Under the pieces are notes generated by a model, which made no database searches, had not been told where the DNA came from, and saw nothing but the letters and a program-made list of their open reading frames with translations. Shown one piece after another: positions 24,670 to 39,127 of a DNA stretch of 64,000 nt (position 1 is its first letter; each line of letters starts with the position of its first letter). This DNA comes from Planctomycetota bacterium (GTDB lineage Bacteria > Planctomycetota > B15-G4 > SIAN01): NCBI GenBank assembly GCA_031409275.1, contig JANNXA010000027.1, forward strand, positions 96,001 through 160,000, written 5' to 3'. A program made the position numbers and the translations under genes.

Positions 24670-25812
24670 GTGGTCCTGCGGGGAGACATCGCGATATCGA
24701 TCGATCGGGCAGCACTCGCACGCGGGCTGGGGCAGAGCCTCTGGTACGACAACATCTCGCGAGCGCTGCTGCGCGACGGCACCATCGAGCGGCTCGTGGC
24801 GGGCGGCGTGATCACGGGCATCACCACCAATCCGGCGATCTTCCAGAAGGCGCTCGAAGGGGGCGGCGATTACGACCGCGAGATCGCCGTGCTCGCCGCG
24901 CAGGGGCTTGCCGCGGAGGCGATCTACGACCGCCTCACGATCGCCGACGTGCAGTCTGCCGCCGATCTGCTGAAGCCCGTATGGGAGCGCTCGCAGGGCA
25001 AGGACGGCTACGTCTCGCTCGAAGTGCTCCCGCGCTTCGCCGCCGACGCCGCGGCGACCGTCGCCGAGGGCAAACGGCTGTTCAAGGAGTGCTCGCGCCA
25101 GAACGTGATGATCAAGGTGCCGGGCACCGCCGCGGGCGTCGAGGCGTTCCGATTGCTGACCGAGGCGGGCGTCCACGTGAACGTGACGCTGCTCTTCTCG
25201 CTCGAGCAGTACGAGGCGATCGCGCAGGCCTGGATCGCCGCGCTGCGCCACCGCATGAAGAAGGGCTTCGCGATCCACACGCTCGCCTCGGTGGCGAGCT
25301 TCTTCGTGAGCCGCGTCGACAACGCCATCGATCCGCAGCTCGATCAGAAGGCCGCCGCCGATCCGGGCGCGCGCGCCGAGCTGCTCGCCCTGCGCGGCAA
25401 GGCGGCAGTGGCCAATTGCAAGGCGGCCTACGCCCGCTTCCGCGAGCTGTTCGGCAAGGAGTTCGACGACTGCCGCGCGAAGGGCGGACGCGTGCAGCGC
25501 ATGCTGTGGGCGTCGACCAGCACGAAGAACCCCGCTTACGACGACCTGCTCTACGTCGAGAACCTCTTCGGCCCCGACACCGTCAACACGCTGCCGCCGG
25601 CGACGCTCGACGCGTTCCTGCACCATGGCGCGGCGCGCTCCGCCACCGTGCTCGAGAAGCAGGGCGACGCGCTCGAGACGCTGAAGGCGCTCGCCCATCA
25701 CGACGTCGACCTCGACGCCGTCTGCCGCAAGCTTCAGGACGACGGCGTCGCCGCCTTCGCGAAGAGCTTCGACACGCTGATCGCGGCCATCGAGAAGAAG
25801 CGCAAGGCCTGA
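24670..25812 (+). CDS. tal: Transaldolase
   Basis: GQSLWYDNISR, GITTNPAIF, GYVSLEV.P, NVMIKVP, VNVTLLFS, SVASFFVSRVD, LWASTSTKNP; start is GTG 24670 or ATA 24694. Confidence 0.93.
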   Translation: MVLRGDIAISIDRAALARGLGQSLWYDNISRALLRDGTIERLVAGGVITGITTNPAIFQKALEGGGDYDREIAVLAAQGLAAEAIYDRLTIADVQSAADLLKPVWERSQGKDGYVSLEVLPRFAADAAATVAEGKRLFKECSRQNVMIKVPGTAAGVEAFRLLTEAGVHVNVTLLFSLEQYEAIAQAWIAALRHRMKKGFAIHTLASVASFFVSRVDNAIDPQLDQKAAADPGARAELLALRGKAAVANCKAAYARFRELFGKEFDDCRAKGGRVQRMLWASTSTKNPAYDDLLYVENLFGPDTVNTLPPATLDAFLHHGAARSATVLEKQGDALETLKALAHHDVDLDAVCRKLQDDGVAAFAKSFDTLIAAIEKKRKA

Positions 25813-25830
25813 ACGGGCCGCGCGGGCCGC

Positions 25831-28749
<2,919 letters not shown>

Positions 28750-28777
28750 GGCGATCCGCAGCAGCGCGTGGCCCGGC

Positions 28778-29161
28778 TCAGTGCTCGTCGGCGCACTTCT
28801 TCTCGTAGGCGGCCGCGTCGAGCAGGCTGTTCCACTCGGCGTCGCTGGCGACCTTGAACTTGAGCATCCAGCCCTTGTTCCACGGATCGGCGGTGAGGCT
28901 CGCGATGTCATCGACGAGCGCCTGGTTCACCGCGCTCACCTCGCCGCCGATCGGCGCGAAGAGCTCGGAGACGGCCTTGACCGACTCGATCTCGCCGAAG
29001 CGGTCACCCTTCTTCAGCTTGGCGCCGACCGCGGGAAGCGACAGGAAGGTGAGGTCGGAGAGGTGCTCGACCGCGAACGCGGTGATGCCGACGGTCACGA
29101 CGTTGCCGTCTTTCTTGGCCCATTCGTGCGATTCGAGGTAGCGGCGATCGCTGGGAACCAT
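28778..29161 (-). CDS. gcvH: Glycine cleavage system H protein
   Basis: SHEW, VGIT.FA, lipoyl motif [16 protein letters not shown]. Confidence 0.95.
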
Positions 29162-29273
29162 GGGTGCCTGTCGACTCCAGGTTGGAGGCAGGCGCGCAGC
29201 AGCGGAGATCGCGGCGGCGAGCCGACCCGGCGGAAAAGGGCCGGGATGATAACGGCTCCTGCCAACCTCAGCG

Positions 29274-29805: not shown

Positions 29806-32520
29806 ATGGCACTCACCGGCGACCTCGGATCGATCGACCTCGTCAACGTCTTCCAGATGCTCTTGCTGAGCCAGAAGACGGGAACGCTGGTGATCCGTTC
29901 GCGCGGGAGCCGCAGCGAGGTCTATCTCGACTCCGACAGCGTCCTCGTGCCGTTCGATCGCGACGCCTACCCGACGCGGGTCGTCAAGGCGCTCGAGCGC
30001 GCGGGCAAGCTCACCGCCGAGCAGGTGGCGCGCGCGCAGGCGAGCCTCGGAGTGGTCCAGCGCGACCTCTTCACCATCCTGCTGCAGATGCGGGCCGTCA
30101 CCTCCGAGGACTTCTCGGCCGCGTGGCGCGCCGAGATGGAAGAGGAGATCTACGAGCTGTTCGTCGATCGCGCGGCGACCTTCGAGTTCCGCGAGGGCGA
30201 AGCGCCGAGCCTGCCCGGCAAGGTGGTCGACGAACGCTACCGCCTCTCCGGAAGCGGACTGCTGATGGAGGCCGCCCGTCGAATCGACGAGTGGGGGTTC
30301 ATCCGGGAACGCGTCGCGACCGACCGCTGCATCTTCGAGGTCAGCAATGGCGCGCAGGCGCTGCCGGAGTCGGAGCGCGACAGCGACATGATGGCGGTGG
30401 TGCGCGAGCTCGACGGCACGCGCCCGGTGACCGCCGTCGTTGCCCGAACCGGCGTCAAGCGCTTCACCGTCTGCAAGAAGCTGGCGCTGCTGGTCGAGCT
30501 GCACGCCGCCTACGAAGTCGGGCGCGATGCGCTGGTCGAACGCGCGCGCCGTTGCCTGCGCGAGCAGCGCGGTGAAGAAGGGTTGGCGCTGCTCGAGCGG
30601 GCGCTCGAACTCGGCTCCGACGATCCGCAGGCGCACGAGATGGCCGCGCTCGCCCATCAGTCGCTCGGTCGGATCGGCGAAGCGTGTCGACACCTCGCGC
30701 TGGTGGCCGAAGCGCTGGAACGGGCGGGCCAGCGGCGTCAGGCGGCGGAAGTGCACCTGCGCGTCCGTGACCTGCTGCCGACCGAGGTTCGCAGCCGCGA
30801 GCGGCTCGTGCACCATTGGCTCGACGATCCCGAGTTCTTCAAGGGCACGCGCTACCGCGCCGAGGACGAGGCGGTGGAGCTCGCGGCGATCCTGCGAGAA
30901 CTCGGCCGTGCCGAACAGGCGCGCGCTCTGCTCCTCGAGCTGGCGACACCCTTCGCGAAGGACTCGCGCCTGACCGGCAAGCTCGCCGACCTCGCCGTCG
31001 AGAGCGGCGAGCCGAAGCTCGCCGTCCAGCTTCTGGTCGATGGCAGCGACGCGCTGATGAAGGCGAAGCAGCCGGCGGCCGCGGCGCGCCTGCTGCGACG
31101 CGTGCGCATGATCGAGCCGAACCACGAAGGGCTCGACTCGCGACTCGCCTCGTGCGAGCGGCATGCCGCGCTCGCGCCGCTGCGCGGTGGCCGGTTGCTG
31201 CGCATCGGCTTCGGGCTCGTGATGCTGATCGGTGGCGCCGCGGGTGTCCTGCTCTACAACCGCGAGGCGCTCGCTTCCTTCGCGCAGCTGCCGATCGAGG
31301 AGCGGGCGGTCGCCGGCGACTTCGACGGGGCCTTGCAGGAACTCGAGCGTTTCCGCGAGGACTATCGAGGCGCCCTCACCGGATGGCTGATCGACGAACG
31401 CGTCGAGGTGCTGCGCTCGCGGCGCAACAGCGCGTCGACGGCGGCCGTCGAGCGCAAGGCGCTGCTCGCCACCGAGCAGGTTCGGCGCCAGAAGGTGGCC
31501 GAACGCAGCTACGGCGAGGCGCTCGACCATCTGCGACTCGGTGATCGCGTCGCGGCGCTCGCGGCTTTCGACCGGTCGGCCGAGCATGCGACCGATCCTC
31601 GATTCATCGCCGAACGCGCACCGGCGGGCAAGGCGCGCGAGCTGCGCGCGTTGCTCGATTCGGAGCAGCAGGAGCAGATCGCCTACGCGCAGGCGCACGA
31701 GCAGCAGTCGTGGGAGCGCATGCGCGAACTCGGGATGCGGCTGTTGGCGCGCCGTGATCCGCGCAGCGAGGAGGCGCCGATCCTGCTGCCGCTGCGCCTC
31801 GTCGTCGATCCGCCCGAAGCGCAGATCACGCTGACGCCGCCGCCGCTCGATGGCCAGGTCGCCAGGAGCCCGGCGCTGCTGCTGCTGCCGGCCGGAAGCG
31901 AGACGAAGGTCGTCGTGCGCTGTGCGGGACGCTGCGAGGTCGAGCTTTCGATCGCGCCGGAGCGAGGGTTCGAGCAGATCGTGCGCCTCGACTATCTGCC
32001 GGATCCTGCGTTCGAACTGCCGCATCGCGCCGCTTTCCCGGCGCTCGTCGTCGGCGATCTCGTCGTCGTCGCCTGCGAGGACGGGCGCGTGATCGCCGTC
32101 GATTCGCGCACGTTCGAGGAGCGCTGGCACCAGCAGCTTCCCGAGCTCGATGACGCCGCGGGTCCGCCGACCCTGGACGACGTGGGCATCCGCATCCCGA
32201 CCCGCAAAGGGGCGGTGGTCTGGCTCGATGCCACGGCGGGCGCGCGCGTGCAGTTTCAATCCACCGGGGGGACGGCCCAGGCCGCCGCGGGCAGCAACCA
32301 GGTGCGGCTGGCGGGCGGCATGAGCCTGGGCGCCGATGACACGCGTGTCACGTTGCGTGACAAGGCAGGCGTCTCGTTGGCGGTCTGGCGAACGCCTGGC
32401 CCGTCCGACTGGGGAGTCGCCGTCCCGGGGGGCGCGCTCTTCTGCTGCGGCGATCGCCTGGTGCGAATCGTTCCCGATCGGGTGCTCGCCTCCAAGTCGG
32501 CCGGGGAGAACGGTCGATGA
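29806..32520 (+). CDS. DUF4388 (PatA_N-like)-TPR-transmembrane protein with extracytoplasmic PEGA-like and PQQ-like repeats
   Basis: MALTGDLGSIDLVNVFQML...KTGTL, LLMEAARRIDEW; TPR-like helices; TM near 31195-31257; LVVVACEDGRVIAVD...ERW. Confidence 0.8.
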   Translation: MALTGDLGSIDLVNVFQMLLLSQKTGTLVIRSRGSRSEVYLDSDSVLVPFDRDAYPTRVVKALERAGKLTAEQVARAQASLGVVQRDLFTILLQMRAVTSEDFSAAWRAEMEEEIYELFVDRAATFEFREGEAPSLPGKVVDERYRLSGSGLLMEAARRIDEWGFIRERVATDRCIFEVSNGAQALPESERDSDMMAVVRELDGTRPVTAVVARTGVKRFTVCKKLALLVELHAAYEVGRDALVERARRCLREQRGEEGLALLERALELGSDDPQAHEMAALAHQSLGRIGEACRHLALVAEALERAGQRRQAAEVHLRVRDLLPTEVRSRERLVHHWLDDPEFFKGTRYRAEDEAVELAAILRELGRAEQARALLLELATPFAKDSRLTGKLADLAVESGEPKLAVQLLVDGSDALMKAKQPAAAARLLRRVRMIEPNHEGLDSRLASCERHAALAPLRGGRLLRIGFGLVMLIGGAAGVLLYNREALASFAQLPIEERAVAGDFDGALQELERFREDYRGALTGWLIDERVEVLRSRRNSASTAAVERKALLATEQVRRQKVAERSYGEALDHLRLGDRVAALAAFDRSAEHATDPRFIAERAPAGKARELRALLDSEQQEQIAYAQAHEQQSWERMRELGMRLLARRDPRSEEAPILLPLRLVVDPPEAQITLTPPPLDGQVARSPALLLLPAGSETKVVVRCAGRCEVELSIAPERGFEQIVRLDYLPDPAFELPHRAAFPALVVGDLVVVACEDGRVIAVDSRTFEERWHQQLPELDDAAGPPTLDDVGIRIPTRKGAVVWLDATAGARVQFQSTGGTAQAAAGSNQVRLAGGMSLGADDTRVTLRDKAGVSLAVWRTPGPSDWGVAVPGGALFCCGDRLVRIVPDRVLASKSAGENGR

Positions 32521-32589
32521 CTGGTCCGATGGACGTCCCGCCCAGCGGAACGTCGCTTCCGCATTCCTGATTCTGGAGCGCATGGCGTC

Positions 32590-33753
32590 GTGGGATTCCT
32601 GGCACGATCGCGTGATCGACTGCTGCTGTCGCGCCGGCTGGCGCGCTGGCGCGACGCGCCATCGCCGGCCGCATTGACCGAAGCGGTGCATACGCTGCTG
32701 CGCCTTGGCGAAGTCGAACGCGCCTGGACGCTCGCTCGCCAGGGCTACGCGAAGTTCAAGGACGACGACCTCGTTCGCGAGCTCTATCGAATCGTCGGTC
32801 GCGCCCACGCCGAGCACGGTCTCGTCGCCGCGCAGGACGAGGTGAAGAGCCGTCCGACCGCTGCGGCATTCGTCCGCCTCGCGCGCTTCGCGGTGCTGCT
32901 GCGCGACGTCGAAGGCGCATTCGTCGCGCTCGAGGAGTGCTTGCGCCGATTCCCCGCTTCCGCAGCGGCGCATGCCGCGCTCGGCGAGTTGCACGAGCAG
33001 CGCTGGCTGCGCGATCTCGCCGCGGCCGATGGCTGCGTCGTCCTCACGCATCTGCGCAAGGCGTGGCGGCTCGACGGCGCCGAGCCCACGCGTCCGCTGC
33101 GTCTCGCCGCGTTCCTGGCGCGCGTCGGCGCGGTGCGAGCGGCGCTGAACGTCGCCAACGAAGTACTGCACCTCCACGAGGAGCACGCCGATGCGATCGC
33201 CTTGCGCGACAGCCTCGCGCGTGTCGTCGCAGCGGGCGTGCAGGCGGGAACGATCGCCGCGGAAGGCGAGGAGGATGTCGAATCGCTCCTGCGCCAGATC
33301 GAGGAGAGCGGTCGCGTCGTCGGCGATCCGGGCGATGCGACGCGGGTGGCTCGCGAGAGCGAGCGCCTGCGCGCGTTCCTGCCGGCGTTGCGCGAGCGAA
33401 CCGGTTGCGAGAAGGCGTTGGTGGTCGAGCCCAAGGGCCACGCGCAGGACGAGCGCGGCGCGCTCGGCGCTTCGCCGCTCGTCAATCTTGCGGCCAACCT
33501 CTCCCGTTCAGGGCAGTTCACCGTGCGGCGGCTCGATCTCGGGCCGCTCCAGTCGGTGACGATGGTGACGACGGGCGGCTCGCTGCTGCTCCAGCGCGCG
33601 CAACGATGCCTGGTCGGCGTGCTGCTCGATCAACCCGACGCCGTCGAGCGCGGCAAGGCCGGCCTCGAGGATCTGGTGGCGGGTCGACTTCGCGCCACTC
33701 CGCTGGTCGCGTCGCGCCCGGTCGCCGCGCGCGTCGCCAAGGACCCCACATGA
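32590..33753 (+). CDS. TPR-like protein with C-terminal roadblock/LC7-like domain
   Basis: Helical repeats (ALEECLRRFP.SAAAHAALGEL); C-terminal GCEKALVV..KG...RRLDLGPLQSVTM.T.GGSLLL. Confidence 0.65.
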   Translation: MGFLARSRDRLLLSRRLARWRDAPSPAALTEAVHTLLRLGEVERAWTLARQGYAKFKDDDLVRELYRIVGRAHAEHGLVAAQDEVKSRPTAAAFVRLARFAVLLRDVEGAFVALEECLRRFPASAAAHAALGELHEQRWLRDLAAADGCVVLTHLRKAWRLDGAEPTRPLRLAAFLARVGAVRAALNVANEVLHLHEEHADAIALRDSLARVVAAGVQAGTIAAEGEEDVESLLRQIEESGRVVGDPGDATRVARESERLRAFLPALRERTGCEKALVVEPKGHAQDERGALGASPLVNLAANLSRSGQFTVRRLDLGPLQSVTMVTTGGSLLLQRAQRCLVGVLLDQPDAVERGKAGLEDLVAGRLRATPLVASRPVAARVAKDPT

Positions 33754-34106
33754 AAGAGATCCTTCAGCGGCTGGAAGGGGTGCCAGGCGTGGTCGGCGCG
33801 CTGGTGATGACGCTCGACGGCGTCGTCATCGCGTCCGTGCCGCAGGGGGTCGACCTCGATCGGACCGCCGCGTTCCTGTCGGCGGTCCTGCTCAGTGTCG
33901 AGAAGAGCGCCGAACAGCTCGGACTGGTGCCGCTGCAGCGACTCACGCTGGCGGCGACGCGCGGCCGACTGCTGCTCGTCCCGGTCGGCGAGCTGGCGCT
34001 CGCCGTCGTCGCCGACGGCACCACCGACCTCGGGCCGGCGCTGAACGAGGTGGCGGGGCTCACGAGGCGCCTGCTCCGGCAAAGCAAGATCAACGTGGCG
34101 GATTAG
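33750..34106 (+). CDS. Roadblock/LC7 domain protein
   Basis: ATGA overlap with the upstream gene; ILQRL..VPGVVGALVMTLDGVVIAS...LGL.PLQRLTL.ATRGRLLL. Confidence 0.88.
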   Translation: MKEILQRLEGVPGVVGALVMTLDGVVIASVPQGVDLDRTAAFLSAVLLSVEKSAEQLGLVPLQRLTLAATRGRLLLVPVGELALAVVADGTTDLGPALNEVAGLTRRLLRQSKINVAD

Positions 34107-34164
34107 CGATCGGCGCGCAGCGGTCGATGACGACGAACGATTCACCGAGGAAGGTGCAAACGCG

Positions 34165-35280
34165 ATGGTGCAGATCAACTTCGCCCGCAAAGAGATCAAC
34201 TGCAAGATCGTCTATTACGGGCCTGGCCTGTCGGGAAAGACGACGAGCCTCGAGGTCGTGCATCAACGCACGCCGCAAGGCCACAAAGGGGAGCTGACGT
34301 CGATCTCCACCGATGGCGATCGGACGCTCTTCTTCGACTTCATGCCGCTCGACCTCGGGACGATCGCCGGGATGAAGGTGAAGTTCCACCTCTACACCGT
34401 GCCCGGACAGGTCTACTACAACTCCACGCGCAAGCTCGTGCTGCTCGGCGCCGACGGAATCATCTTCGTCGCCGACTCGACGCCGGGCCGCATGGAGGAC
34501 AACCAGCAGTCGATGGACAACCTCGCCGAGAACCTCACCGAGATGGGGCGCGAGGTGAACCGGCTGCCGCTGGTGATCCAATGGAACAAGCGGGACCTGC
34601 CCAATCCGGTGCCGCTCGCCGAGCTCGAGGCGAAGCTCAACCCGAACAAGGTGCCGACCTTCGAGACGTCGGCGAAGACGGGTGATGGCGTGTTCCAGGC
34701 CCTGAAGTCGATCTCCGCGCTGGTCCTGGAGGACATCAACTCGAGCGACCGCAAGCAGGCGGGCGGCATCCAGAACAACGCGAAGCGCGCCGGGGCACCG
34801 GCCGTCCAGAGCAAGGCGACGGCGAGCGAGCCGGCCGGCGCTTCGAGCGGCTCGATGCCCGATCGCGATGCCGGCAAGGTGTTGCGCCCGGTTCCGACTC
34901 CGGCGCGCACGGCCGCAGCGGCCGCCGCGACGAGCGGTGCGACCGCGACCGCGACGGCCCAGGGTGGCGCCTCGGCGAAGGCGGTCGCCGCGACCAAGCC
35001 GGCCGCGGCGCCGGCGGCTGGGCCGGCACCACGCACGGCGGAACCTGTCGCTGCGACGGAGCCGCGAGCGGCGTCGCGCGCACCGATGACGGAGTCGAAG
35101 GCGGCGCTGAAGAACGAGATGCAGCAGATGGCGCAGAAGCGGGCCGAGAAGCCCGCGGCGTCAGGGGCCGCGACGCACGCGTCTTCGGGCAACTCGAAGA
35201 TGTTCGCCTTCATGGCGCTCGGGATCCTGGCCGGCGCCGTCGCCGCTGTGGTCGCCGCCAAGTTGCTGCTCGGGTTCTGA
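34165..35280 (+). CDS. mglA: MglA-family small GTPase with Ala/Pro-rich linker and C-terminal TM helix
   Basis: INFARKEINCKIVYYGPGLSGKTT, DRTLFFDF, LYTVPGQVYY, NKRDLP, TSA. Confidence 0.93.
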   Translation: MVQINFARKEINCKIVYYGPGLSGKTTSLEVVHQRTPQGHKGELTSISTDGDRTLFFDFMPLDLGTIAGMKVKFHLYTVPGQVYYNSTRKLVLLGADGIIFVADSTPGRMEDNQQSMDNLAENLTEMGREVNRLPLVIQWNKRDLPNPVPLAELEAKLNPNKVPTFETSAKTGDGVFQALKSISALVLEDINSSDRKQAGGIQNNAKRAGAPAVQSKATASEPAGASSGSMPDRDAGKVLRPVPTPARTAAAAAATSGATATATAQGGASAKAVAATKPAAAPAAGPAPRTAEPVAATEPRAASRAPMTESKAALKNEMQQMAQKRAEKPAASGAATHASSGNSKMFAFMALGILAGAVAAVVAAKLLLGF

Positions 35281-35338
35281 ACGGTTCCGCGATCCGACTT
35301 GTCGCGTCCGTCGCTCGGACGCATGCACGGAGCATGAA

Positions 35339-35866
35339 ATGTCGAAGGACCAGCAGTTGCGCGACGATCGCTTGGTCTTCTATCGGAACGACCTCGGCCG
35401 CATCGACCGCGTGCTCGAGGAGTTCCTGCGTCTCGCCGGCGCGTCGACCGTGCTGCTGATCGACAAAGAGGGGCACATGATCACGCAAGCCGGCAAGGTG
35501 CCGAGCTTCAACATGGACACGATCAGTGCGCTGGTCGCCGGCTCTTTCAGCGCGACGCGAGAGATGGCTCGCCTGCTCGGCGAGAAGGAGTTCTCGGCGC
35601 TCTATCACCAGGGCGAACGCGACAACATCCAGCTGTCGCTGGTGGGCGATCGGACCATCCTCACGGTGCTCTTCGACGACTCGACCACGCTCGGCATGGT
35701 GCGCCTCTACGTCACCGAAGCGGTGCGCAAGCTCGAGGACCTCTTCGTCGAGATCTGCCGAGGTCGCAGCGACCCCAACGCCCAGGGGCGCGCCGACATG
35801 GACGATCTCGCGAACATCAAGAACTCGGCGAAGGACACGCTCGACGCGCTCTTCGACGGCAACTGA
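35339..35866 (+). CDS. mglB: MglB roadblock protein (GAP for MglA)
   Basis: LLIDKEG..I...G, ISALVAGSFSAT..MARLLGEKEF..LYHQGERDNI, FDD.TTLGMVRL, C-terminal LDALF helix. Confidence 0.92.
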   Translation: MSKDQQLRDDRLVFYRNDLGRIDRVLEEFLRLAGASTVLLIDKEGHMITQAGKVPSFNMDTISALVAGSFSATREMARLLGEKEFSALYHQGERDNIQLSLVGDRTILTVLFDDSTTLGMVRLYVTEAVRKLEDLFVEICRGRSDPNAQGRADMDDLANIKNSAKDTLDALFDGN

Positions 35867-35900: not shown

Positions 35901-37412
35901 CTACCGCTTCAGTCGCGCGAGGTTGTTGGTCGCGTCCGTCTTCGCGGATTGCGCCATCTCGCGCGTGACCTGCGACGTGAGCGGGTCGGCGATCAGCGCG
36001 TCGGCGGCGGCGATCGCGCGCTCGTACAGCGAGCCGGCCAGAGCGAGGTCCTTCTTCAGGTAGTCCTGCAGGATCAGCGCCGCGTCGTTCAGGAAGCGCG
36101 GCTGCTCCGGGGCGAGCTCGATCAGGTGGGAGTAGGCCTCCCATGACGGCTCGTACTGGCCGGTCTCCCGGCACAGGAAGGCGTAGTTGTTGCAGACGTT
36201 CTGGTCCTCAGGCGCCAACAGCCAGGCGATCCCGAACAGGTCGCGCGCCGAGTCGGCCGCCTTCTTCTTCACTTCCTGATCGGCGAGGAACTGCAGCGCC
36301 GCGGCGACGGTCGCTTGGGTGCCGAGGTGGAGCAGCAGCGCGCGGCCGCCCTCGCGATCGGCGGCGAACGCGGTCTTCCACTCGCGCGCGGCGTCGTCGA
36401 ACTTCTGCGTGCGGAACGCCGCCTCGGCCATCCCGAGCGCGCACGGCAGCACCAGCGATTCGTCGAGCGCGCGCGCCTTCTTGAACAGCGTCGCCGCCGG
36501 CTCCCACTCGCGCGCGAAGAGGCGCGCCTGGCCGACACAGAAGAGCGCGTAACCAGGACGCGGGTCGTTTCCGCTGACGCGCTTCTCGGCGGCCGTGAGC
36601 GCGGCTTCGAGCGTCGCGCGCGCGGCCTGCGCGAGATCGGGCACCTTGAGGTAGGCCAGGACGAGATCGAGCGTCGGCCGATCGAACGGTTCGATCTCGA
36701 AGGCGCCCTTCCACGCCGCGAGCGCTTCCGTCCAGTGCTCGAACGCGTGATGGAGGTCGCCGAGCCGCAGCCGCAGCTCGGCCGATTTCGGGTCGTCGCG
36801 GATCAGCGTTTCGAGCGCGTTCTTGGCCTCTTCGTAGTCGGCGTCGGCGCCCGCCTCGACCTGCTGGCGTGCGACGTGATAGGCGATCTGGCCACTCAGC
36901 GTGCGCTGCCCGGCCCGATCGAGCCCGCGCTGTTCCGCCTGCGCCTTCGCGGCGCGCGCTCCCTCGAAGTCGCGCAGTTCGAGCAGCGCCTCGGCGGCGA
37001 CGACCCATGGCTGCGGATCGGTCGGCGCCAGCGCGGCGGCACGCTCCGCCTGGTTCTGCGCGTCGAGCAGGAAGTAGCGCGTCTCCTCTTCTTCGCCGCG
37101 CCCGATCGCGACGCGCGAGCGCGCACGGCGCAAGAAGGTGCGCGCGAGGCCGAGGCGCAGATCGGCGTCGTTGGCGCCGCGGGCGATCGCGTCGAGGAGC
37201 GCGCTGCAGGCGGCGTCGTCGTTCCCGAGCGCGAGTTCAGCGAGGCCGAGCCCTCCCTGCGCGCGAACGTCGCCCGGCGCCCGTTTCATCTGGTTCTTGA
37301 ACGCCGTCCGCGCGAACGCGGGCTTGCCTTGCTTCAGGTAGTCGAAGCCATCGCCGCGCGCACCGACCTGAGGCGTGGTCAGCAGGGCGATCAGCAGCAC
37401 CGCTGCGGTCAT
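35901..37412 (-). CDS. Exported TPR protein
   Basis: Signal peptide; multiple TPR-like repeats; ATGA overlap with the upstream gene. Confidence 0.8.
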   Translation of the reverse strand: MTAAVLLIALLTTPQVGARGDGFDYLKQGKPAFARTAFKNQMKRAPGDVRAQGGLGLAELALGNDDAACSALLDAIARGANDADLRLGLARTFLRRARSRVAIGRGEEEETRYFLLDAQNQAERAAALAPTDPQPWVVAAEALLELRDFEGARAAKAQAEQRGLDRAGQRTLSGQIAYHVARQQVEAGADADYEEAKNALETLIRDDPKSAELRLRLGDLHHAFEHWTEALAAWKGAFEIEPFDRPTLDLVLAYLKVPDLAQAARATLEAALTAAEKRVSGNDPRPGYALFCVGQARLFAREWEPAATLFKKARALDESLVLPCALGMAEAAFRTQKFDDAAREWKTAFAADREGGRALLLHLGTQATVAAALQFLADQEVKKKAADSARDLFGIAWLLAPEDQNVCNNYAFLCRETGQYEPSWEAYSHLIELAPEQPRFLNDAALILQDYLKKDLALAGSLYERAIAAADALIADPLTSQVTREMAQSAKTDATNNLARLKR

Positions 37413-39127
37413 TCCGCGTCGCCGCCTTCGCCCTCGCTGTCGGCGTCCGCCTCCTCCTCGGAGCTTCCCGCCTCGGCATCGGCGGCGGCCTTCTCCTTCG
37501 CCGCCTTCTCTTCAGCGGCCTTGTCCTGCTCCGCTTGCCACTCGTCCGGGAGCAGCGTCTTCTTCCAGTGGGAGACTTCGCTGCGCTTCGGGAGTTTCTG
37601 CTCGAGTTCGCGCAGGCGCGCGATCGCGAGCTCCTTGCGGCCATCCTGCGAGTACATGTTGATCAGGTTGCCGTAGGCGTCACCGAGGGTGAGTTGGTCA
37701 TCGGCGCGCTCGCTCGTGGTGCGCCCTTCGGCGTGCAGGCCGCGGTCCGCAAGCTCGATGGCGCGGACGAGCCACTCCTCGGCGCGGTCCATGTCGCGCC
37801 CGAGGTGGTACATCAGGATCAGCGCGCCATCGTTCAGGTAGCGCGGGTTCTCCGGTTCGAGCGCGAGGGCTCGGCGATAGGCCTGGAAGCTCTCCTCGTA
37901 CTTCTTGCACTCGCGCGCGAAGAAGCCCCAGTTGTTCCAGTTGTCCGCCTTCTCCGGTTCGACCATCGCGCGCTTGCTGGCGAAGGCGCGGATCTCCTCC
38001 CACTGCTCCGGCTTCATCGCTTCGCCGCCGAACTTCTTCCACATCGCATCCTGCAGAACCTGCAGGCAGTCGTGGGCGTCGGCGTGGGTGGAGTCGAGGT
38101 CGAGCGCGCTGAAGATCGCCGCCTCGGCATCGCCGAATTTCTCGGCCAGCGTCAGCGCGCGACCGCGAAACGCACGCAGCGTGGGGAGGTACGCCTGGAC
38201 CGCCTGCGCGAGCGCCGGGTCGCTCTTGGCGGCGGCGCGGAAGTCGGTCTCCGCATGGAGGTAGTCCTCGGCGGCGGCAACGAAGTCCTTGGTCTTGTTG
38301 AAGGCGACGTGGCCCTTGAGCTCGTGCACTCGCGAGCGATACCAGCGGCTGATCGCCGGCTCGTCGACGAGGCCCGTCAGGAAGTCGCTCGCCTCGTCGA
38401 AGAGCAGCGTCTGCGCGATCACCTTCAGGTGCGCCTCGTGGAGCGCGGTGTCGGCGGGGTGCATCTGAAGCGCCTTGCGGTACGCGCGCGCGGCGAGGCG
38501 AGGCTCATCCTTCGCAGCGTGGATCTCCGCCTGGCGCCGGAAGACGTCGACTTGCGCATCCGCGAGACCGCTCGCCCGTTCGAGCGCCGCCTCGGCGTCG
38601 GCGAGTCGCGCCTTCGCGCCGCCTTCATCCTCGTTCTCGAGCGCGAACTCCCGCGCCATCAGGAGCGCATCGGAGAGGTCGAGCAGCAGTTCCGGCGTCG
38701 GTGCGCCGAGCTTCTCGGCGTGATAGAGCGTGTCGATCGCTTCGCTGAACTTCCCGGCGACCACCAGCACGTGGCCGAGGGTCGCCCAGGCGCCGCTGCC
38801 GTGCGGGTCGAGTTCCACCGCGTTGCGGGCCGCCTCCTCTGCGCGCTCGATCGTCGTTTGTGCGCGTTCGCTTCCATCTTCCTCGCCCGACCGCGCCTGC
38901 TGTTGCGCGGTGAGGCAGCGCGCGCGCGCGAGCAGGATCCAGCCACGCGCCTCCTTCGGCTGCTCCTTCAGCGCCTCTTCGAAGAGCGCCGTCGCTTCGT
39001 CGACGCGGCCGGAATGCAGCGCTTCGCGGCCTTTTGCGAGCGCGCGCTCGACGTCGGCGGCCGGAGCCGGGGAGGCCAGTCCGGACAGCAGCAGGGCGCT
39101 GAAAGGGGCGAGGAAAGTGAGGCGCAC
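37409..39127 (-). CDS. Exported TPR protein with acidic tail
   Basis: SD AGGAG, GTG start, signal peptide; repeated A.ELDP/ALDLD/ALALEP TPR turns. Confidence 0.82.
   Translation of the reverse strand: MRLTFLAPFSALLLSGLASPAPAADVERALAKGREALHSGRVDEATALFEEALKEQPKEARGWILLARARCLTAQQQARSGEEDGSERAQTTIERAEEAARNAVELDPHGSGAWATLGHVLVVAGKFSEAIDTLYHAEKLGAPTPELLLDLSDALLMAREFALENEDEGGAKARLADAEAALERASGLADAQVDVFRRQAEIHAAKDEPRLAARAYRKALQMHPADTALHEAHLKVIAQTLLFDEASDFLTGLVDEPAISRWYRSRVHELKGHVAFNKTKDFVAAAEDYLHAETDFRAAAKSDPALAQAVQAYLPTLRAFRGRALTLAEKFGDAEAAIFSALDLDSTHADAHDCLQVLQDAMWKKFGGEAMKPEQWEEIRAFASKRAMVEPEKADNWNNWGFFARECKKYEESFQAYRRALALEPENPRYLNDGALILMYHLGRDMDRAEEWLVRAIELADRGLHAEGRTTSERADDQLTLGDAYGNLINMYSQDGRKELAIARLRELEQKLPKRSEVSHWKKTLLPDEWQAEQDKAAEEKAAKEKAAADAEAGSSEEEADADSEGEGGDAE

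Follow-up and report, generated by a model that had tools for sequence, protein, structure and literature searches.

A block of five open reading frames (ORFs), here called g1 to g5, was found on the plus strand at positions 29,806–35,866 of the window, which denotes the whole 64,000-nucleotide (nt) stretch analysed from contig JANNXA010000027.1 of a Planctomycetota bacterium (GCA_031409275.1, hereafter the host). The block encodes a small GTPase of the MglA family with a predicted membrane anchor (g4), the adjoining MglB (g5), two further Roadblock proteins (g2 and g3) and a membrane-spanning protein with a PATAN domain (g1). The positions are those of an earlier note made from the letters of the window, whose description of five co-oriented genes with short gaps or overlap was borne out by the coordinates (Table 1), the intergenic distances from g1 to g5 being 69, −4, 58 and 58 nt. 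This spacing suggests that the five genes are co-transcribed; a promoter and terminator scan was uninformative, detecting nothing that resembles a sigma-70 site and a single terminator-like site where 3.2 would be expected. The GC content of the window is flat, and that at the third codon positions (GC3) of the five genes is 0.83–0.90. An artefact of GC-rich open frames was ruled out by the domain matches and the synteny, and a chance grouping was also ruled out, as the gene order is kept across the phylum. The host genome holds one copy each of g2, g3 and g5; a full-length paralogue of g1 lies on contig C14 and a weak relative of g4 on contig C55.

The GTPase, its predicted anchor and the Roadblock proteins

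The G-domain of g4 spans amino acids (aa) 1–190 and has Arf and Ras matches in Pfam. Its residues G21, K25, T26, R53 and T54, the TVPGQ motif at 78–82, and N141, K142 and D144 were invariant in 83 aligned sequences. The signature of group 1 MglA proteins consists of a P-loop GxxxxGK[TS], an arginine finger beside the G2 threonine, TVPGQ as G3 and NKxD as G4 (PMC4316618). Judged by these motifs, the G-domain of g4 is of the group 1 MglA type and its catalytic motifs are intact. Group 1 proteins are also described as soluble, single-domain proteins of 150–240 aa, from which g4 departs with its 371 aa, its linker and its predicted transmembrane (TM) tail.

The tail was followed in two sets of loci. 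The first comprises 40 loci from 38 family codes and leans to clear orthologues because these were picked among the 150 best-scoring places; the second comprises 80 loci anchored on g5, part of whose DNA is shared with the first. A hydrophobic 19-mer (Kyte-Doolittle (KD) value of at least 1.9) was present in 37 of the 38 complete MglA tails of the 40 loci, the two other proteins ending at contig ends, and a TM tail (KD of at least 1.8) was found in 61/61 MglAs of the g5-anchored loci. Among 63 TM-bearing MglAs the Ala/Pro-rich linker measures 82–238 aa, and in 59 of them no more than 14 residues follow the helix. The MglA with a TM tail in a non-myxobacterial host, as claimed earlier, is upheld by the predicted helix and these tails, the host belonging to the Planctomycetota. 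A degenerate switch-II pattern was tried as a clade-specific marker and rejected, as it matched many phyla; it was reused for a phylum-blind control. This yielded 120 MglA loci, of which 47 were incomplete and excluded, and in the 73 complete ones a TM tail was present in 7/7 proteins from Planctomycetota and in 0/66 others.

In the Uabimicrobium group, an amphipathic segment replaces the TM helix in 6/6 tails, with a hydrophobic moment of 0.73–0.90 that was equalled by at most 7 of 1000 shuffles. The MglA phylogeny that had been proposed as a check was built from 69 chosen G-domains. This tree placed Planctomycetota and Nitrospinota on one branch (100/98), with the amphipathic-tail group nested within it, and the short mglB-mglA type on a separate branch (99/95). 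It seems from the tails that the type of anchor changes, TM or amphipathic, while affinity for the membrane is kept, which was counted in favour of the membrane-bound landmark proposed below. Outside these groups, the hydrophobic moment gave no support for an amphipathic helix in three Zixibacteria-type tails or in a Fibrobacterota tail (371–836 of 1000 shuffles as high); these tails may resemble the membrane-targeting tail of MinD.

The product of g5 matches Robl_LC7 (E = 4e-14) and, below the cut-off of that model, the MglB model NF052242 (E = 5.5e-25). Its family profile aligns over the full length to Myxococcus xanthus MglB (6izw/6h5b, E = 6e-41; residues 4–158 of 6izw_B). By this alignment g5 is a true MglB including the C-terminal helix; it adjoins g4 and is predicted to be the GTPase-activating protein (GAP) of g4.

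The Roadblock domain of g2 lies at its C-terminus (about aa 257–369). No Pfam Roadblock match was obtained for the window copy, and the domain was recognised from the comparison of the g2 and g3 family profiles (HHalign probability 98.1%, E = 1e-13), from Robl_LC7 matches in 15 of 66 orthologues (TPR_14 being matched in all 66), and from an AlphaFold model (pLDDT 93.8) with the helix and strand order of a Roadblock. The product of g3 matches Robl_LC7 (PF03259, E = 4.7e-14), and its family profile finds the solved Roadblock 7yh1 (E = 1.6e-18), LAMTOR2 (E about 1e-4), MglB (E about 1e-5) and MglC (7ct3, E = 0.031). By these scores g3 is a stand-alone Roadblock/LC7 protein and not an MglB orthologue. 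The three Roadblock domains of the earlier note were therefore all recovered, and its suggested profile searches with PF14332 and PF03259 matched g1 (E = 1e-18) in the first case and g3 and g5 in the second.

The membrane-spanning PATAN protein

The product of g1 consists, in order, of a PATAN (DUF4388) domain with an MshEN-like helical insert, a winged-helix-like domain, TPRs, a TM helix, an outer helical region, a PEGA-like part and a shortened propeller of PQQ/BamB type. DUF4388 (PF14332) is the PATAN domain (10.1101/2021.06.11.447907), an identity that the earlier note had missed; the PF14332 match is accompanied by the helical insertion of the family, which is visible in both model and alignment. 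TPR matches were obtained with Pfam, and the PQQ_2 match of the window copy is weak (E = 2.7e-4). Among 20 orthologues scanned, PQQ_2 was matched in 20, PEGA in nine and HTH_9 in two. A TM segment was found in 46 of 52 g1 orthologues with a mean of 5.0 K/R before and 1.7 after it, and from this positive-inside bias the N-terminus and the PATAN domain are predicted to be cytoplasmic. The AlphaFold model (pLDDT 87.5, pTM 0.50) shows a winged-helix-like unit after PATAN and an all-strand PEGA/propeller region; it is unreliable at the TM helix (pLDDT below 50 at aa 456–479). A features search of the ESM Atlas with residues 480–904 returned scores below 0.8, a lead only.

Within PATAN, the insert is similar to the MshEN unit of Thermus PilF (g1 family profile against 6f8l residues 300–358, E = 4e-20). 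The model NF053729 for a cyclic di-GMP (c-di-GMP) motif scored above its cut-off in 17 of 54 N-termini of the g1 family and gave no match in the window copy. A second g1 paralogue of 1173 aa with a longer propeller lies away from the block on host contig C14 (about 25180–28703; L441), and its c-di-GMP motif is one that we take, from inspection by eye, to be intact. In two sampled genomes (L146, L160) both g1 paralogues flank the block, and in one genome of the host's order a stop divides the g1 orthologue (L119:5408-8692) into two ORFs, through decay or an assembly error.

The only extracytoplasmic columns of g1 conserved at 90% or above are P662, P669, G708 and L728, all in the PEGA-like part. 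No propeller column reaches 90%, and conservation is concentrated in PATAN. The protein is about 900 aa long in the lineage and genus of the window and about 1050 aa elsewhere, with a propeller about 150 aa shorter in the former. Because conservation lies in PATAN, and the propeller is poorly conserved and shortened, this pattern fits better with a scaffold than with a receptor for one conserved ligand; sensing specific to a lineage would also be compatible with it.

Table 1. Genes of the block and predicted features of their products, in window coordinates.
Feature	Position	Strand	Description and basis
g1	29806..32520	+	904 aa; Pfam, PDB profile search, AlphaFold, hydropathy
g1, PATAN (DUF4388) domain	29815..30294	+	PF14332, aa 4-163, E = 1e-18
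g1, predicted TM helix	31198..31254	+	aa 465-483, Kyte-Doolittle (19-residue) 2.01
g1, predicted extracytoplasmic PEGA-like part and partial beta-propeller	31783..32469	+	orthologue Pfam matches, model
g2	32590..33753	+	387 aa, GTG start; TPR and divergent C-terminal Roadblock
g3	33750..34106	+	118 aa; stand-alone Roadblock/LC7; 4-nt overlap with g2
g4	34165..35280	+	371 aa; group 1 MglA G-domain, Ala/Pro linker, C-terminal TM
g4, predicted tail-anchor TM helix	35200..35256	+	aa 346-364, Kyte-Doolittle (19-residue) 2.42
g5	35339..35866	+	175 aa; MglB

Distribution and association with a type IVa pilus set

In 401 genomes of the phylum, the G-domain of g4 found matches (E ≤ 1e-20) in 221 and the profile of g3 in 205, of which 204 were MglA-positive. 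The genes g2, g3 and g4 were contiguous in 39 of the 40 loci, and all five genes stood in the order of the window in 23; two of these 23 carry an additional g1 downstream, and in two the g1 has no N-terminal match. The g1 gene followed g5 in four loci and was outside the fetched stretch in nine. In the g5-anchored set, 48 of the 50 loci with at least 6 kb of upstream sequence showed all five genes in order. The synteny comparison called for earlier thus describes a module that is conserved and co-inherited. Within the host's order, DUF4388 was detected in 22 of 41 genomes, the same set as for MglA except for two fragmented assemblies.

A survey of non-carriers covered 67 genomes titled Planctomycetota, chosen by means of a 16S primer. 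MglA was detected in 1/47 genomes titled Planctomycetia, 0/3 Brocadiia, 0/1 Phycisphaerae and 6/16 unclassified (five strong matches and one weak), with class limits that are approximate: the titles are submitters' labels, and several carriers are titled Brocadiaceae, Phycisphaerales or Planctomycetia. None of the seven named cultured Planctomycetia strains had a match. Control of budding, one of the roles suggested earlier, was rejected because the budding Planctomycetia are mostly without the module. All five genes are present in order in Candidatus Uabimicrobium amorphum (L029). The same genome contains 11 MglA-like domains (L171-L181, L312-L317), two of them fused to pentapeptide repeats and an ion-channel-like TM segment and one to STAS and WD40.

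The host has seven PilT-like, five PilB-like and three PilC-like genes. On its contig C49 (137400–155300; L440), pilM is followed by ORFs that resemble pilN, pilO and pilQ by eye, an extra pilT and a pilT-pilB-pilC cluster. Orthologues of this PilC (at least 62% identity) were present in 20 of the 22 DUF4388-positive and 0 of the 19 DUF4388-negative genomes of the host's order. The best matches in the 19 negative genomes reached at most 44% identity, and the two positive genomes without a C49-type PilC are 70% and 86% complete. In family f5, the DUF4388 module and the C49-type PilC occur together in one genome and are both lacking in four. Across the phylum (n = 401, PilC at E ≤ 1e-95), 209 genomes had both MglA and PilC, 12 MglA only, 32 PilC only and 148 neither. 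The C49-type PilC was therefore detected in 209/221 MglA-positive and 32/180 MglA-negative genomes, MglA occurring nearly always with PilC and not the reverse.

As controls in the host's order, MreB was found in 39/41, PilT-family proteins in 40/41 and PilB-like ATPases in 41/41 genomes. These are kept regardless of the module, and therefore the pattern is not one of general gene loss; only PilC at the level of the orthologue separates carriers from non-carriers, which scoring PilT, PilB or MreB as present or absent does not. PilM scored above its cut-off in 2/2 module-positive and 0/3 module-negative genomes tested. The 18 genomes of the phylum without PilT at E ≤ 1e-120 are all without MglA, and at least three PilT copies were counted in 200/221 MglA-positive and 59/180 MglA-negative genomes. 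Type IVa pili are the best-supported output of the module, one that the earlier note had overlooked.

A similar layout together with pilus genes was found outside the phylum. In 3/3 long loci of a Zixibacteria-type branch (two titled Zixiibacteriota, one Ignavibacteriales), the order is comEC, PATAN, TPR-Roadblock, TM-Roadblock, Roadblock, long mglA, mglB, pilB, pilT, pilC and a kinase gene; the PATAN protein of these loci has no TM segment. The best matches of the host to their pilB-pilT-pilC genes are those of the C49 set.

The proposed explanation starts from direct observations, namely the gene content and order, the intact motifs, the conserved hydrophobic tail and the co-occurrence with one PilC orthologue. 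It is considered somewhat more probable than otherwise that the planctomycete block is a group 1 MglA/MglB switch with a predicted anchor, serving as a landmark at the membrane that controls the place and timing of the activity of one type IVa pilus motor. By analogy with established MglA biology, g4 would cycle between GTP and GDP with R53 as an intrinsic arginine finger and a g5 dimer would be its GAP. In Myxococcus, MglC, a second Roadblock dimer, bridges MglB to a polar landmark (PMC10329633), and the Roadblock of g2 may pair with g3 to form an MglC-like adaptor that positions MglB. MglA-GTP recruits TPR effectors and MglA-SgmX drives pilus formation (PMC11580455); the TPRs of g2 and g1 may act as SgmX-like effector or scaffold surfaces. 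The PATAN regulator PixE binds PilB1 (10.1101/2021.06.11.447907), and the PATAN domain of g1 might couple to the extension ATPase PilB like such cyanobacterial domains. The outer PEGA/propeller region of g1 would fix the complex in the envelope. A likely cytoplasmic input would be c-di-GMP, through the PATAN insert of about a third of the family, probably including the C14 copy. On its long flexible linker, the tethered G-domain would be able to contact partners close to the membrane, as opposed to shuttling from pole to pole through the cytoplasm.

Several points weigh against this explanation. Pilus genes hardly adjoin the planctomycete block, with one PilB match in 140 loci and none in the 80 g5-anchored loci. 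PilC occurs without MglA in the 32 genomes counted above and MglA without PilC in 12, four of them in family f84. Related genomes are not independent, and the match with PilC within the order rests on about two losses; moreover, scoring genomes by a single E-value threshold for one protein of the host in part reflects distance. In the G-domain tree, a sister relationship of the Zixibacteria MglA to the planctomycete clade found no support, and therefore the linkage of the former to pilus genes is an analogy by layout. It should also be noted that the movement of Saltatorellus is reported to be unlike typical twitching (10.1101/817700).

A receptor-coupled G-protein system, the idea of the earlier note, is rather unlikely. 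Here g4 would be switched from outside: the outer PEGA/propeller part of g1 would bind a ligand or recognise a surface or prey, and its PATAN/winged-helix part in the cytoplasm would act as an exchange factor or relieve the Roadblock GAP; pili may still be the output. Consistent with this are the topology of g1, which crosses the membrane once and has a signalling domain in the cytoplasm and a propeller outside in 20/20 orthologues scanned, the lack of an enzyme domain in g1 itself and the winged-helix-like region after PATAN (HTH_9 in 2/20; model). The fourth protein of the actinobacterial conservon is a likely guanine nucleotide exchange factor (PMC13621833), and receptors combining TM segments with propellers or TPRs are common in the phylum (PMC11032199). 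The conservation of g1 argues otherwise, as no propeller column reaches 90%, the outer columns that do are confined to the PEGA-like part and in the host genus the propeller is reduced by about 150 aa. Related modules also have other outer parts or none (a pilin-like domain in Nitrospinota; no TM segment in the Zixibacteria PATAN protein), and g1 lies outside the fetched stretch in 9/40 loci and lacks the N-terminal match in two more.

It appears quite unlikely that the membrane site marked by the switch serves something other than pili, for instance a change of shape, crawling by another motor, the engulfment of prey or cell division, and that the correlation with pili reflects shared ancestry. 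Such a role would suit Candidatus Uabimicrobium amorphum, a crawling, prey-engulfing carrier of the block in which division proceeds by pulling apart (10.64898/2026.10.26.761892), and the 11 MglA-like domains of its genome. In Myxococcus, gliding is another process driven by MglA, by way of the membrane protein GltJ and of MreB (PMC11135422), and pilus genes do not adjoin the planctomycete block. On the other side, the module is present in 221/401 genomes, far beyond the known engulfing lineage, and is mostly missing from the budding Planctomycetia. MreB is retained where the module is lost, GltJ (NF033761) had no match above the cut-off in 5/5 carriers, a search in which the long query may miss weak matches, and contrasts within families (f5, f60) track the pilus set.

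It is very unlikely that the BamB-like propeller couples the switch to the assembly of the outer membrane, for instance by positioning the PilQ secretin or the BAM machine, so that the module would organise the biogenesis of the envelope and not the activity of a motor: the g1 family profile does match BamB structures (E about 1e-46 to 1e-50), and BamB is listed for g1 among the generic TPR/propeller matches of Foldseek searches with the whole g1 and g2 models, but at TM-scores of about 0.1, while designed symmetric propellers outscore BamB and other PQQ-type propellers equal it, and g1 is an inner-membrane protein, not a lipoprotein, whose propeller is partial in the host.

Returning to the membrane-bound landmark for a pilus motor, a fuller version is offered with little confidence. 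In it, the PATAN-TPR-TM-propeller protein is a receptor that senses contact with a surface or prey in the periplasm, and stacked Roadblock dimers switch a tail-anchored GTPase that aims the type IVa pilus motor throughout the phylum. If true, this receptor-GTPase module would steer the crawling and engulfment of Uabimicrobium-like planctomycetes and would be the counterpart in bacteria of the membrane-anchored eukaryotic GTPases on a Ragulator-like scaffold.

Relation to known systems and neighbouring genes

Eukaryotic switches of the Ras family work from membranes. The characterised bacterial MglAs in the literature surveyed are short, single-domain GTPases. A tail-anchored MglA in about half of the sampled Planctomycetota, with its anchor swapped in the phagocytic Uabimicrobium group, suggests that bacteria possess an independent form of membrane-bound small-GTPase signalling. 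The block also provides a short, testable gene list, which includes a candidate pilus motor, for the choice of direction in planctomycetes that crawl, change shape or engulf prey. What makes the module worth testing is the tail-anchored GTPase, the spread of the block through the phylum, its occurrence in a phagocytic bacterium and its link to a single pilus motor.

One close counterpart is the MglA/MglB/MglC system of Myxococcus xanthus with SgmX, which shares the G-motifs with the intrinsic arginine, a full-length MglB, additional Roadblock and TPR partners and, probably, the pilus output. The planctomycete MglA differs in its linker of 82–238 aa and its TM tail, in the order roadblock-mglA-mglB with the partners in one block, and in falling into a separate clade (100/98), and g3 is only distantly MglC-like (E = 0.03). 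The link of Myxococcus MglA to Agl-Glt gliding through GltJ has no counterpart above the cut-off of NF033761 in the carriers (0/5). Nothing on the genes adjoining sgmX was found in the available text of PMC7519303.

PATAN proteins near group 1 MglA and systems with two MglBs have been reported (PMC4316618, Wuichet and Sogaard-Andersen 2014). Examples are the order MglB>MglB>MglA>PATAN in Chloroflexus, tabulated for Chloroflexi in Table S2 of that study, and a 313 aa MglA before mglB in Fibrobacter. These neighbourhoods share with the planctomycete block PATAN, more than one Roadblock and, in Fibrobacter, a long MglA that precedes mglB. They differ in that no membrane anchor and no trans-membrane PATAN-propeller protein are described in the available parts of the study, which excluded GTPases above 240 aa from its analysis and has no entry for Planctomycetes in its searchable supplement. 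The earlier note, which knew of no description of this arrangement, had missed the Chloroflexi precedent of PATAN and two MglBs beside a group 1 MglA; its statement holds for the anchor and for the block as a whole, neither of which was found in the literature searched. In full-text searches, neither a membrane-anchored MglA nor the planctomycete block was the subject of any paper retrieved, with most subscription papers and bioRxiv supplements outside their scope. A term search found no mention of Mgl in the available text of the Uabimicrobium and Saltatorellus papers (10.64898/2026.10.26.761892, 10.1101/817700, PMC11032199, PMC11481906). As far as these searches reach, PATAN and extra Roadblocks beside MglA are already known, and the membrane anchor and the planctomycete block are undescribed so far.

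The actinobacterial conservon (CvnA-D, MfpA-E) is likewise a receptor-linked operon of a membrane protein, a Roadblock protein and a GTPase of the MglA family (PMC13621833). It has a group 2 MglA (GTPGQ, no arginine finger) and a sensor resembling a histidine kinase, whereas g4 is of group 1 (TVPGQ, R53) and is accompanied by three Roadblock domains; no match to a CvnA-type kinase or to DUF742 (CvnC) was obtained in the five proteins or in 20 g1 orthologues. The PATAN domain is shared with cyanobacterial PatA-type PATAN-receiver regulators such as the PilB1-binding PixE, from which g1 differs in having no receiver domain, in its fusion to TPRs, a TM helix and a propeller, and in its coupling to a GTPase module. 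The Ragulator-Rag complex also holds a small GTPase at a membrane by stacked Roadblock dimers, and an analogy between Ragulator and MglC/MglB has been drawn (PMC10329633). For the planctomycete block this is an analogy only, as the anchor is part of the GTPase itself, which contains no Roadblock domain, and g3 scores against LAMTOR2 at E of about 1e-4.

Modules made of similar parts were seen in other phyla. In Nitrospinota, MglA is fused to a SurA-like N-terminal domain (L018:8001-9218 and L018:11683-12957), and both versions scanned (2/2) end in this SurA-like domain. About 2 kb downstream of MglA, behind a multi-TM TPR gene, lies a gene for a PATAN-TM protein that ends in a T2SSG pilin-like domain, a feature counted in favour of the proposed pilus output. 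Gemmatimonadota loci have the order Roadblock-Roadblock-mglB-mglA with a short soluble MglA; the parts are alike, there is no anchor, and one locus (L310) is flanked by two PATAN proteins. In Acidobacteriota and other loci (e.g. L189, L198, L208, L258), orphan MglAs have tails of 100–400 aa, many with a strand-like end, and no Roadblock match lies within 1.5 kb of them.

In the window, the block is preceded on the minus strand (25831–29162) by ORFs whose translations resemble the P and H proteins of the glycine-cleavage system, and is followed by two convergent TPR genes (35901–39127, minus strand). The weak relative of g4 on host contig C55 (237223–238761, minus strand) is an ORF of 512 aa whose MglA-like domain scores weakly (E about 1e-8 to 1e-12), and no Roadblock match adjoins it.

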